From NCBI GenBank assembly GCA_026165385.1, contig GCA_026165385.1_4524.2: a stretch of DNA of 49,697 bases. One strand, 5' to 3'. Shown piece after piece: positions 9,562 through 19,248 of this stretch (its first letter is position 1; each line of letters begins with the position of its first letter). The notes below the pieces were generated by a model. That model was not told the DNA's origin, did not search any database, and was given only the letters and a program-made list of their open reading frames with translations. Origin of the DNA: a phage. Made by a program: the position numbers and the translations under genes.

Positions 9562-9867
9562 ATGAAATTAACAGAAACCAATCGAATTGGTCTTTTAACA
9601 ATACTTGCATCACCTTTTTACGCAACTCTTTCTGTTGCAGTATTACAAAAGGCTTACAGTATGGATGGTGTTCCTGGTTGTATATTTTTATCACCATTTT
9701 TGCTATTCGTTGGAGCTTTGTTATTATATGCCACGTCTGGTTTCGACCATAATGTCTGGGTCAATTATAAACGTAAATTGTCCGAAGAAGAACACGCAGA
9801 AGCTCGTAAAAAAGCTATTGAATCTACCAATCTAGAAAATTTCATTAAAGAATGTCGAGGAAAATAA
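9562..9867 (+). CDS. Small membrane protein, 101 aa, C-terminal NFIKECRGK tail
   Basis: SD GAGGAG; two hydrophobic helices; shared C-terminal motif. Confidence 0.6.
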   Translation: MKLTETNRIGLLTILASPFYATLSVAVLQKAYSMDGVPGCIFLSPFLLFVGALLLYATSGFDHNVWVNYKRKLSEEEHAEARKKAIESTNLENFIKECRGK

Positions 9868-16055: not shown

Positions 16056-16104
16056 GTTTACTTCTCCTCTAGTTGTGTTACTATAGACCTGTCAACTAGA
16101 GGAG
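16056..16104 (+). promoter_or_regulatory. Early promoter with inverted repeat whose 3' arm contains the SD
   Basis: GTTTAC 16056-16061; CTCCTCTAGTTG / CAACTAGAGGAG arms flanking TGTTACTATAGA. Confidence 0.5.
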
Positions 16105-16112
16105 AAATCAAA

Positions 16113-16571
16113 ATGACTATCAATTCGGAAGTTTTTATCCGCCGTAATAAACTCCGTCGAATCTTTGAAACGGAGTTCCGCAAAATAAATGCCGGTATAA
16201 AAGATGCTGCAAAGTCTCTTGGACTACCAGGCTTTCATATCAAGTATTCTCAACATCTCTTAGATCGTGCCATCCAGAGAGAAATAGATGAGAATTACGT
16301 TTTTGAATTATTTCGTAAAGTAAAAAATCATGTTAAAGAAGTTACAGAATTTTTATCAATGCCGGCACGTCCAGATGTTGATGAAGATTTTGTCGAAGGT
16401 GTCGAATACCGTCCAGGCCGTTTAGAAATAACTGATGGAAATCTTTGGTTAGGACTTACAGTTTGTCGCGAAAATCCAGCATTCAAAATGAAGACTCTTC
16501 AATGCAGAATGGCTATTATTAACAGTAAACGACTACCAGGAAAAGCTTCTAAAGCAGTGATTAAAATCTAG
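16113..16571 (+). CDS. regB: RegB-like sequence-specific endoribonuclease
   Basis: 152 aa starting MTINSEVFIRRNKLRR, matching my recollection of T4 RegB; location between denV and tk as in T4. Confidence 0.65.
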   Translation: MTINSEVFIRRNKLRRIFETEFRKINAGIKDAAKSLGLPGFHIKYSQHLLDRAIQREIDENYVFELFRKVKNHVKEVTEFLSMPARPDVDEDFVEGVEYRPGRLEITDGNLWLGLTVCRENPAFKMKTLQCRMAIINSKRLPGKASKAVIKI

Positions 16572-16579
16572 AGGTAAAC

Positions 16580-17122
16580 ATGAGAAAAGCACTACTCGCT
16601 GGTCTATTTGCTCTTTCATTATCAGCACATAGCTCCGAGCATACTTTTAGTAATGTCCAACTCGATAACTTGAATTATGCTTATCAGTTTGGGGAACAGT
16701 TTTCTAAGGATGGAAAATTTAAAACGCATGAAAATATGCATAAGAAAGGACTTGGATACATAATGGCTGCAATACTATGGCAAGAATCATCTGCCGGTAT
16801 TAATCTTAAAGATAAGAAAGGTCACCATGCGTATGGAATGTTCCAAAACTATCTACCGACAATGAGGGCAAGAATTAACCAGCTTGGTTATAATATGACT
16901 GATGCCCAAATTAAGAAAATGCTATCTAAGCGGTCTAATTCAGCCAGATGGGCTTATATCGAATTTTCTTATTGGTTAAATATACATAACGGGGATATAA
17001 GAAAAGCTATATCCTCATATAATGCGGGATGGAAGACAAGTGCTGGAAGTAAATATGCTTCTGAAGTCCTAGAAAAGGCTAATTACCTTAAATCAAATAA
17101 ACTACTGGAAATAAAAGAATGA
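16580..17122 (+). CDS. Secreted lytic transglycosylase (SLT domain) with signal peptide
   Basis: N-terminal signal peptide MRKALLAGLFALSLSAHS; SLT-like motifs WQESSAG, YGMFQ and SYNAGW. Confidence 0.7.
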   Translation: MRKALLAGLFALSLSAHSSEHTFSNVQLDNLNYAYQFGEQFSKDGKFKTHENMHKKGLGYIMAAILWQESSAGINLKDKKGHHAYGMFQNYLPTMRARINQLGYNMTDAQIKKMLSKRSNSARWAYIEFSYWLNIHNGDIRKAISSYNAGWKTSAGSKYASEVLEKANYLKSNKLLEIKE

Positions 17123-17466
17123 CCAAAATGTTGGCTTTAATAGTTGGCTTGGTTTCATTTAACACTCTTGCTAATACTACATATACTGATGTAACGGAGT
17201 ATACAAACAGAACGGCGTCTGATTATTGTGGTAAAAGTCAAGAGTGTAAAGTAGATTTTTCACAAAAATTGTTATATGCGTATAAAGACGGAGAAAAAGA
17301 TGGGGCGTCTAGTAGGTTCAAGGCGTCTACCTTAATTAAAAGATACTATAAAAAATGGCAAATATTAGAATGCTCGGTGGCGGAACCTAAAGATAAGGCA
17401 GCATGCAATTCTATGGTGGACCGTCTAGTTGACTCTTATACTAGAGGACTTGCAGCAAGTGATTAA
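17119..17466 (+). CDS. Secreted/periplasmic Cys-containing protein, 115 aa
   Basis: N-terminal signal peptide MTKMLALIVGLVSFNTLA; four Cys; ATGA overlap with the SLT gene. Confidence 0.55.
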   Translation: MTKMLALIVGLVSFNTLANTTYTDVTEYTNRTASDYCGKSQECKVDFSQKLLYAYKDGEKDGASSRFKASTLIKRYYKKWQILECSVAEPKDKAACNSMVDRLVDSYTRGLAASD

Positions 17467-17923
17467 AAACTATATCAAGGGCGATATTGTCGCCCTGTTT
17501 TCTAAAGGTAATAATATTGCTCATGGGTGTAATTGTTTTCATACAATGGGCGCTGGTGTGGCGGGTCAATTAGCAAAGGCGTATCCAAAAATTCTGGAAG
17601 CCGATAAACTTCAAACCGAATTCGGAGACGAGTCTAAACTCGGGACTTATTCGGTTTATGAAAAATATTTTAAGGCCCATAAAGCTTATTGCTTTAATCT
17701 TTATACACAGTTTAAGCCGGGACCTAATTTTGAGTACTCTGCTTTAATGAATTGTATAATAGAATTAAATGAATTCGGAAAGAATAAGATAACAAAGCCT
17801 GTAATTTATATGCCAAGAATTGGTGCAGGTATTGGTGGTGGAAACTGGGATGTCATCGAAGAGATTTTAGATACGTATTCCACTAAACTAGAAATTGTGA
17901 TTGTTGATTGGGAACCTAAATGA
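17459..17923 (+). CDS. Macro domain protein (putative ADP-ribose binding/hydrolase), GTG start
   Basis: Motifs GDIV..., NIAHGCNCFHTMGAGVAGQLAK (compare NAAN...GGGV.GAI) and PRIGAGIGGG (compare P.ISTG.YG); no in-frame ATG near the 5' end, GTG at 17459 after SD GAGGA. Confidence 0.55.
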   Translation: MIKNYIKGDIVALFSKGNNIAHGCNCFHTMGAGVAGQLAKAYPKILEADKLQTEFGDESKLGTYSVYEKYFKAHKAYCFNLYTQFKPGPNFEYSALMNCIIELNEFGKNKITKPVIYMPRIGAGIGGGNWDVIEEILDTYSTKLEIVIVDWEPK

Positions 17924-18102
17924 AATTGACTAAAGAAGAGAAAACTAAACTGTTCGAACTTATCCATGACCTATTGGATGAGCAAGCAGCCACCAATGCG
18001 TACGATGAATATGCTCCTTTAACAGATGAAGAATATCAAGCATTGATGGAATCATTTGACAGGAAAGAACAAGAACTCATTGACTACGTGAATTCACTAT
18101 AA
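17920..18102 (+). CDS. Hypothetical acidic protein, 60 aa
   Basis: ATGA overlap with the upstream gene. Confidence 0.5.
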   Translation: MKLTKEEKTKLFELIHDLLDEQAATNAYDEYAPLTDEEYQALMESFDRKEQELIDYVNSL

Positions 18103-18111
18103 GGGACTCTT

Positions 18112-18693
18112 ATGGCTAGTTTAATTTTTACATATGCCGCTATGAACGCTGGTAAGTCTGCTTCATTACTTACTGCCGCACATAACTATAAAGAACGTGG
18201 CATGGGTGTATTAGTTCTTAAACCGGCTATTGATACTCGTGATTCAAAAGGTGAAATAGTCTCTCGTATTGGTATTCGTCAGGATGCCAATATAATTACA
18301 AAAGACATGGATATCTTTGAATTCTATAAATGGGCTGCAGCACAAAAGGATATTCACTGTGTATTTGTTGACGAAGCTCAGTTCTTAACTACTGAAAAGG
18401 TGTATCAACTTAGTCGTATTGTTGACGTATACAATGTGCCGGTAATGGCATACGGACTACGAACAGATTTTAAAGGTAATCTATTTGAAGGTTCTCAAGC
18501 ATTAATGGCTATTGCCGATAAGCTTGTTGAACTTAAAGGTGTCTGTCATTGTGGTAAAAAGGCCACAATGGTAGCTAGAGTCACGGAAGACGGACTTCCA
18601 ATTACAGATGGCAGTCAAATTGAAATTGGTGATACCGATAGATATGTGTCATTATGCCGGAAGCATTGGAACGATTTGACAGGGTTGTTATAA
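18112..18693 (+). CDS. tk: Thymidine kinase
   Basis: 193 aa; P-loop AMNAGKSASLL, VFVDEAQFL, C-terminal zinc-type Cys pairs; close match to T4 Tk as I recall it. Confidence 0.95.
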   Translation: MASLIFTYAAMNAGKSASLLTAAHNYKERGMGVLVLKPAIDTRDSKGEIVSRIGIRQDANIITKDMDIFEFYKWAAAQKDIHCVFVDEAQFLTTEKVYQLSRIVDVYNVPVMAYGLRTDFKGNLFEGSQALMAIADKLVELKGVCHCGKKATMVARVTEDGLPITDGSQIEIGDTDRYVSLCRKHWNDLTGLL

Positions 18694-18945: not shown

Positions 18946-19248
18946 ATGGCCTTAAGAGCGATAGCCATTGTGGCGATGCTGGGGTTTTTTGCAGCAACGA
19001 CTCCTATTGTTGGCACTGCATATGTTGACCCATACTTTGATAACTTTATGGAATCAGGGATTAAAAACGTATATACTTTGTTTGAAATTCAAAATGTCGA
19101 GAATTCTGAAAAATTCTATAAGTATATGGCAAAGCATTACAAAAATAGCCCCTGTGATGATGCATTTGAATGTCATGAACAAGGCATAAAAACTGCCAGA
19201 CAATTTGCCGAGTTCATGAAAATAAAATTAGAGCCTACATCTATCTAA
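18946..19248 (+). CDS. Hypothetical protein with N-terminal signal/anchor, 100 aa
   Basis: SD AGGAGG; hydrophobic N-terminus ALRAIAIVAMLGFFAATT. Confidence 0.55.
   Translation: MALRAIAIVAMLGFFAATTPIVGTAYVDPYFDNFMESGIKNVYTLFEIQNVENSEKFYKYMAKHYKNSPCDDAFECHEQGIKTARQFAEFMKIKLEPTSI

Follow-up and report, generated by a model that had tools for sequence, protein, structure and literature searches.

The stretch analysed here, contig GCA_026165385.1_4524.2 of the phage assembly GCA_026165385.1 (49,697 nucleotides in total, hereafter the window), carries two overlapping open reading frames (ORFs) on its + strand between the genes regB and tk.4. The window DNA is 98-99% identical to that of Mosigvirus phages, e.g. 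APCEc01 and SCS57, and its gene order is that of T4. Almost certainly, the window thus belongs to a Mosigvirus-type relative of T4 and the two ORFs are the orthologues of T4 vs.1 and vs, which are already known and named genes located between regB and tk.4. A preliminary description of this DNA had placed both ORFs next to regB, with the second one starting within an ATGA overlap, and had noted SLT-like motifs and a signal peptide in the first product, and a signal peptide and four Cys in the second; all of these features were found again. It did not recognise the ORFs as T4 vs.1 and vs, its "secreted Cys protein" being encoded by the gene annotated as a modifier of the valyl-tRNA synthetase (ValRS). 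The features of the pair are the following.

16580..17122, + strand: vs.1 orthologue, 180-residue precursor, predicted exported peptidoglycan glycosidase with a GH23/SLT fold
16580..16633, + strand: predicted Sec signal peptide of Vs.1, residues 1-18, cleavage between AHS and SEH, assigned by the n/h/c rule
16778..16798, + strand: motif I, WQESSAG, with the codon of Glu69, the predicted catalytic acid, at 16784-16786
16832..16846, + strand: motif II, YGMFQ, equivalent of GLMQ in family-1 lytic transglycosylases, located in a β hairpin of the model
17015..17032, + strand: motif III, SYNAGW, equivalent of AYNAG
17119..17122, + strand: ATGA overlap of the vs.1 stop and the vs start, read from the ORF calls
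17119..17466, + strand: vs orthologue, 115-residue precursor, predicted exported four-helix-bundle protein, annotated "valyl-tRNA synthetase modifier"
17119..17172, + strand: predicted Sec signal peptide of Vs, residues 1-18, cleavage between TLA and NTT, assigned by the n/h/c rule
17227..17406, + strand: the four Cys codons of Vs, C37 (17227), C43 (17245), C85 (17371) and C96 (17404)

The vs.1 product of the window shares 83% amino acid identity with its T4 counterpart (phrog_600, E=3.7e-67), and its mature form, of about 18.7 kDa and with a pI of 9.6, contains zero Cys. The three SLT-like motifs are located at residues 67-73 (WQESSAG), 85-89 (YGMFQ), and 146-151 (SYNAGW). In an alignment of 78 Vs.1 sequences (31-84% identity), residues W49, E51, G68, Q71, N72, Y129, N130, and G132 are invariant in the mature numbering, in which E51 is Glu69. 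The catalytic Glu on which the preliminary description had staked its enzyme is therefore present in 78 of 78 sequences. When the family profile is run against PDB sequences, it finds goose-type lysozymes and places Glu69 on their catalytic Glu, while single-sequence searches of Vs.1 and Vs against the same PDB sequences returned nothing useful. The AlphaFold2 model of mature Vs.1 (pLDDT 92.6, pTM 0.88) locates Glu69 at the C-terminal end of the helix 41-52, within the E-S pair typical of motif I, and YGMFQN and SYNAGW agree with motifs II and III of GH23/SLT proteins. Foldseek analysis of this model returns only GH23 or lysozyme-like proteins among the top matches (probability 0.84-1.0, TM 0.44-0.58), the best ones being a Ralstonia GH23 chitinase, MltD, Slt, the phi6 P5 lysin, and T7 gp16 (probability 0.9-1.0, TM 0.5-0.6), in agreement with an α-helical lysozyme-like fold. 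Pfam analysis reports matches with SLT, and with no other family, for 70 of the 78 relatives at E<=0.01 (best 1.3e-7); a precomputed PF01464 match is also on record for many relatives. Since the relatives match SLT so consistently and the structural matches belong to GH23, the SLT likeness of Vs.1 goes beyond chance. As judged from the model, it is near certain that Vs.1 possesses the GH23 lysozyme-like fold with the three motifs of family-1 lytic transglycosylases.

A GH23 fold may also be borne by a protein that binds glycans or is otherwise non-catalytic, or that acts on a substrate other than peptidoglycan. The best structural match of Vs.1 is indeed a chitinase and not a transglycosylase, the SLT sequence score of the window protein is marginal, and a search of the literature within reach returned no experimental work on vs.1 and no report of an activity or function. 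We nevertheless hold this explanation to be most improbable: a Glu at the catalytic position and three motifs that remain invariant among sequences of 31-84% identity form the pattern of a working active site, and peptidoglycan is the only such polymer in the E. coli periplasm.

The enzyme prediction is itself already published and not new. Nolan et al. reported in 2006 the SLT similarity of T4 vs.1, citing Miller 2003, together with a marginal but consistent Pfam SLT match for six T4-like phages (PMC1524935). The vs.1 product is also entered as "transglycosylase SLT domain-containing protein" in some GenBank records. T4 is described with two lysozyme genes, e and 5, in the paper on Spackle (PMC7650644). 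Regarding the proposal made in the preliminary description, an exported peptidoglycan-cleaving enzyme distinct from e and gp5, Glu69 and the GH23 fold support it in silico.

Both Vs.1 and Vs are likely exported, as suggested by their N-termini. That of the first ORF, MRKALLAGLFALSLSAHS followed by SEH, and that of the second, MTKMLALIVGLVSFNTLA followed by NTT, each comprise a basic n-region, an uncharged hydrophobic core, and small residues at positions -3 and -1 of the predicted cleavage site; an alternative cleavage of Vs.1 after residue 15 also satisfies the -3/-1 rule. Both pass a crude n/h/c rule, which asks for a basic n-region, an h-region of at least 8 hydrophobic residues, and small -3/-1 residues within the first 15-30 residues. 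This rule is passed by only 7 of the 166 window ORFs of at least 60 residues, among them vs.1, vs, and rI (18946-19248). Another ORF, at 9562-9867 (+ strand), similarly has a hydrophobic N-terminal segment that passes the rule, as a signal peptide or membrane anchor. Among relatives, 108 of 119 Vs.1 proteins and 64 of 72 Vs proteins pass, most of the failures being apparent artefacts of the start codon or of the rule. All full-length members of the Vs family that were inspected display a signal-like N-terminus. In both families, it is the character of the N-terminus that is conserved and not its sequence, and in the Vs homologue P0185 a lipobox, LSGC, replaces the signal-peptidase I site. There is zero in-frame Met between codons 5 and 98 of vs from which a signal-less form could start. 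Of note, an N-terminally His-tagged full-length T4 Vs was insoluble in the cytoplasm (PMC8076793).

The Vs protein of the window shares about 68% amino acid identity with T4 Vs, occupies the same slot, and has 115 residues. It belongs to the T4 Vs family (phrog_1256, E=1.6e-34), all homologues of which carry the precomputed Pfam match PF26829, ValRS_modifier. This is a very small family restricted to phages (23 clusters among 1.84 billion representative proteins); a single-sequence word-index search for Vs homologues returned 4 matches only, and alignments were therefore used. The four Cys (residues 37, 43, 85, and 96) are invariant in 54 of 54 sequences. The AlphaFold2 model of Vs (pLDDT 93.3) is a four-helix bundle in which the Cys pairs are located at the H1/H2 and H3/H4 turns, both at the same end of the bundle. 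This arrangement at two hairpin turns fits two stabilising disulfides, a pairing we infer from the model. A natural deletion variant is found in Escherichia phage vB_EcoM_005 (locus L008, 1393-1650), whose Vs comprises only 85 residues: an internal deletion removes helices 1-2 together with the first Cys pair, and the protein retains the signal peptide, the second Cys pair, and the conserved C-terminus MVDRLVDSYNRGL. The Vs model did not return any informative structural relative, and no Pfam family recurs among the 54 members. A lead toward DUF1311/LprI (3gi7, Foldseek rank 42) was dismissed as noise (TM 0.23, probability 0.04, no Pfam support), and a Spackle-like fold was considered for Vs and not found.

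The two genes are closely associated. In 48 of 48 Straboviridae loci encoding a Vs.1 of at least 44% identity, vs.1 is immediately followed by vs (junction of -8 to +7 nucleotides), and an additional lineage has vs at 0.4-1.2 kb downstream of vs.1. Conversely, each of the 25 loci retrieved by means of Vs shows vs.1 immediately upstream (junction of -8 to +3 nucleotides), as do the loci of the most divergent Vs (P0194) and of the lipobox variant. Among the loci found, Vs is thus known only from a context linked to vs.1. The flanks, on the other hand, vary: regB or a homing endonuclease is located upstream, and the downstream side is occupied by tk.4, by the gene of a third exported protein, or by other small ORFs. 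Numerous T4-like lineages, those of Acinetobacter phages and of metagenomic relatives, have this third gene located between vs and tk.4 (loci L003 3282-3707, L114 3324-3743, L115 3405-3833, L021, L028, L032, L036-37, and L042-48). Its product (phrog_4957) comprises about 140 residues with a signal peptide and a mature end that often reads AWE, resulting in a run of three exported proteins encoded by vs.1, vs, and this gene; T4 and the window are devoid of it.

Vs.1-like genes also occur without a Vs gene in Ackermannviridae and Felixounavirus. The proteins encoded after them, a DUF7270 protein in Ackermannviridae and a polynucleotide-kinase-like protein in Felixounavirus, were considered as analogues of Vs and rejected, as they are unrelated and look cytoplasmic. 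The Vs.1-like proteins of these two groups contain 2-4 Cys in their mature part, as in Salmonella phage S118 (L004 2408-3025) and phage DE7 (L005 2408-2956). The aligned Vs.1 proteins that are linked to Vs (window, T4, VR26, Potts1, and ecom005) have zero.

In the window, vs.1 and vs belong to four tightly packed ORFs of the same direction on the + strand (16113-17923), namely regB, vs.1, vs, and tk.4. The remaining features of this segment are the following.

16056..16084, + strand: early-promoter-like site upstream of regB, GTTTAC, 17 nucleotides, TACTAT, read by eye
16113..16571, + strand: regB endoribonuclease gene (Pfam REGB_T4, E=5.5e-69; phrog_1323, E=2.2e-75)
17459..17923, + strand: tk.4, macro domain (Pfam Macro, E=1.6e-6), corresponding to AdfM in T4

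The site at 16056..16084 resembles the T4 early-promoter consensus, and is likely the start of the regB-vs.1-vs-tk.4 transcript. A generic scan of the region for sigma-70 promoters and terminators returned sites no commoner than in shuffled sequences. The regB gene ends 8 nucleotides upstream of vs.1, with a GAGG Shine-Dalgarno sequence at 16571-16574. At the other end, the GTG start of tk.4 at 17459 overlaps vs by 8 nucleotides (GTGATTAA) and is preceded by GAGGA at 17444-17448; this start is taken from the T4 and SCS57 annotations, the mechanical ORF call having begun at TTG 17429. The T4 tk.4 product has been named AdfM, an anti-DarTG2 factor (bioRxiv 10.1101/2025.11.20.689424). Positions 17478-17496, which follow vs directly and belong to the very beginning of tk.4, hold a GC-rich hairpin and then a T-run (AGGGCGATATTGTCGCCCT GTTTTCT); this terminator-like element might attenuate transcription or stabilise the vs.1-vs message. 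Further downstream, the window holds one ORF of 60 residues (17920-18102) in the interval 17923-18112 between tk.4 and tk, where close relatives such as APCEc01 and SCS57 have three small ORFs (L001 4924-5518); as the small ORFs between tk.4 and tk differ, the megablast matches are split by a gap of roughly 415 bp.

Fitness data on both genes are available from the T4 HIDEN-SEQ transposon screen, the supplement of which (bioRxiv 10.1101/2025.11.20.689424) is the source of all insertion counts and changes given here, Extended Data Table 6, sheet S8, being that of the comparison between LB and M9 glucose medium. Both vs and vs.1 are classed as non-essential, insertions being found at 30 of 32 and at 46 of 52 TA sites, respectively. 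Following competition in liquid LB, insertion counts average 26.6 for vs and 22.6 for vs.1, as compared with 178.6 for regB, 289.6 for tk.4, and 652 for vs.3. Insertions in the pair are thus about tenfold rarer than in the neighbours, a pattern that repeats in two other control sets. From LB to M9 glucose medium (M9Glc), insertions in vs are depleted further (log2 fold change -2.19, adjusted p shown as 0), vs being the gene most depleted in minimal medium, and those in vs.1 show a log2 fold change of -0.87 (p=0.0055, adjusted 0.155); no such decrease is seen for the neighbours. The phenotype of a vs deletion was confirmed by plaque assay, and the authors explain it through the ValRS annotation (bioRxiv 10.1101/2025.11.20.689424). 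Both genes are therefore dispensable and aid fitness, more so in minimal medium. Of the roles suggested in the preliminary description, namely superinfection exclusion, wall remodelling, and lysis timing, none is favoured by the transposon data. In the same comparison, insertions in regB are enriched (log2 fold change +1.17, p=0.049) while the two genes downstream of it are depleted; nrdA, nrdB, td, and dda insertions are also enriched, and those in a-gt and b-gt depleted.

Taken together, vs.1 and vs probably encode an early, Sec-exported periplasmic module that comprises a GH23 glycosidase, Vs.1, and a disulfide-stabilised helical protein, Vs; whether the two act as partners, we judge evenly balanced from the analysis. 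Early in infection, Vs.1 would be exported to the periplasm and would cut the bond between N-acetylmuramic acid (MurNAc) and N-acetylglucosamine (GlcNAc) in peptidoglycan. Because Vs.1 is devoid of the conserved second acidic residue of the goose-lysozyme type, its reaction would most likely be that of a lytic transglycosylase leaving 1,6-anhydro-MurNAc ends, with plain hydrolysis as the alternative. Vs would be exported as well, be stabilised by its disulfides, share in the periplasm the functional pathway of Vs.1, and most likely bind Vs.1 and tune or restrain it, in the way T4 Spackle binds the lysozyme domain of gp5. Such a module may serve local remodelling of the wall, preparation of lysis, or another role.

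Several observations weigh against this reading. As to the enzyme, the window Vs.1 scores 18.8-19.0 bits with Pfam SLT (PF01464, E=0.0013) and does not reach the gathering score of 21.3, and the Foldseek E-values are only about 1e-2. As to the partner, a comparison of Vs with the known lysozyme and transglycosylase inhibitors (Spackle, Ivy, MliC/PliC, PliG, and LprI) did not report any likeness of fold or sequence. Gene overlap is the norm in this region of T4, and vs overlaps tk.4 as tightly as it does vs.1; the ATGA overlap alone is therefore weak evidence of a functional link. Vs.1-like genes without Vs are found in Ackermannviridae, Felixounavirus, and some Aeromonas-type relatives of T4, and hence the enzyme does not need Vs, which is an accessory of one clade. 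In the transposon data, the effects of vs and vs.1 share, in our reading, the same direction, and the polarity of vs.1 insertions on vs is uncontrolled; the stronger effect of vs in M9Glc fits equally with Vs restraining Vs.1 and with an independent function of Vs. Lastly, the name of the gene has a history. The vs locus is said, from work by Neidhardt, Marchin, McClain, and Mueller between 1966 and 1980, to specify a peptide of roughly 10 kDa, tau, that binds the cytoplasmic ValRS, and this work reportedly includes in vivo phenotypes on valS(ts) hosts.

If Vs were this cytoplasmic peptide, its adjacency to vs.1 would reflect the tight packing of early genes, and Vs.1 would act alone in the periplasm. 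PHROGs, Pfam, and GenBank agree on the name ValRS_modifier for the family; vs mutants are said to have been recovered through ValRS phenotypes, and vs mutations reportedly alter plating on valS(ts) relA hosts. Moreover, vs is as tightly overlapped with tk.4, an unrelated cytoplasmic macro-domain gene, as with vs.1, vs is more depleted than vs.1 in M9Glc, and a role in aminoacylation would explain the depletion of vs in minimal medium (bioRxiv 10.1101/2025.11.20.689424). However, a signal peptide kept across about 70 Vs homologues, one of them with a lipobox, would be purposeless for a ligand of ValRS, and neither the four invariant Cys at hairpin turns nor the want of an internal Met for a signal-less Vs is readily accommodated. 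The linkage to vs.1 also persists where both flanking genes differ, and the searchable literature yielded no paper that ties this ORF, rather than another ORF of roughly 10 kDa in the rI-e interval, to the vs mutations. We consequently see a cytoplasmic Vs as an unlikely explanation.

The conflict between the exported look of Vs and its name allows three readings: the ORF was mis-assigned, Vs associates with ValRS upon mixing at lysis, or Vs is cytoplasmic despite appearances. Text searches, beyond the reach of which the classical 1966-1980 papers lie, returned no account of the assignment of the vs ORF, and no paper in the searchable literature discusses the exported look of Vs with respect to the ValRS name. 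The mature Vs of the window has a predicted mass of about 11.0 kDa, and T4 Vs is predicted at 11.0 kDa when processed and 13.1 kDa as a precursor. Given a size of roughly 10 kDa for tau, the processed form of T4 Vs is the nearer of the two, which would imply passage through the export pathway. That Vs is really a periplasmic partner of Vs.1, as a restraint or an activator, with the ValRS link stemming from mis-assignment of the locus or from association in mixed extracts, and the minimal-medium phenotype of vs from the envelope and not from translation, is a tentative proposal, possible rather than probable.

The same elements could also be assembled into an auxiliary lysis device, in which Vs would hold the exported Vs.1 inactive until holin fires or lysis inhibition collapses, Vs.1 then supplementing e, mainly on the more cross-linked walls of slow-growing cells. 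The predicted pair of an exported GH23 enzyme and a small exported partner suits this scheme, as do the greater importance of both genes in minimal medium and, in several lineages, the proximity of the module to rI, the gene of the periplasmic antiholin, at a distance of a few genes; a loss of vs that is costlier than that of vs.1 in M9Glc would be expected if the unrestrained enzyme is harmful. Yet the genes lie in an early transcription unit that likely starts from regB, and not with the late lysis genes, and Vs.1 homologues exist in other phage families without any Vs. In these transposon data, e itself can hardly be dispensed with (mean counts 2.5-3.9), and Vs.1 therefore cannot replace it, while inhibition by Vs and the mechanism of its release are purely hypothetical. 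Such a device is thus improbable.

The feature is in itself ordinary, a known and conserved gene pair of T4, the first member of which was already predicted in 2003 to be SLT-like. Its interest resides in the mismatch between the ValRS name and the hallmarks of an exported protein encoded together with an exported wall enzyme. In the searched collection, vs homologues occur in about 800 phage records and are usually annotated as valyl-tRNA synthetase or its modifier, and a genome-wide screen of 2025 reads the strongest minimal-medium phenotype of T4 through this name. Should Vs be periplasmic, the sixty-year-old puzzle of why T4 modifies ValRS would need re-examination, and the minimal-medium phenotype would point to wall remodelling. 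T4 would then possess, in addition to e and gp5, a third enzyme system directed at peptidoglycan, and T4-like phages would run an early periplasmic module for peptidoglycan remodelling that matters most in nutrient-poor conditions.

As compared with T4, the Vs.1 protein of the window has the same length and occupies the same slot between regB and vs, without any substantive difference; it is a Mosigvirus allele, 99-100% identical to proteins of sequenced phages. Beyond T4, Vs.1 resembles family-1 transglycosylases and other GH23 members (Slt70/Slt, MltD, phi6 P5, the N-terminal domain of T7 gp16, goose-type lysozyme, and the Ralstonia GH23 chitinase) in its helical fold, the helix-end Glu in an E-S pair, the G-x-x-Q hairpin, and the Y-N-A-G motif. 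It differs from the solved GH23 structures by an identity of only 13-20% (TM 0.5-0.6) and by an extra N-terminal helix and hairpin, and, unlike these relatives, it is encoded by an early gene of a lytic phage, being neither a virion component nor the endolysin. As a small single-domain protein with a signal peptide, Vs.1 also resembles the "specialised" transglycosylases of secretion systems. For Vs, the name of PF26829/phrog_1256 implies a cytoplasmic protein, whereas the family looks exported, with its signal peptide, lipobox variant, and four Cys. Ivy, MliC/PliC, PliG, and LprI/DUF1311 are small exported proteins, often with conserved Cys, that bind the active sites of glycosidases, and Vs resembles them in being small, predicted to be exported, and endowed with conserved Cys. 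The closest functional parallel to the pair, which we use as a working analogy, is that of Spackle (gp61.3) and gp5 in T4. Spackle is made early and resides in the periplasm; its signal peptide of 22 residues is cleaved off, it contains one disulfide, and it inhibits the lysozyme domain of gp5 by forming a 1:1 complex with it (PMC7650644, PMC7677548). Like Spackle, Vs would be an early, small, helical, disulfide-containing protein of the periplasm that binds a peptidoglycan-cleaving domain, here that of Vs.1.

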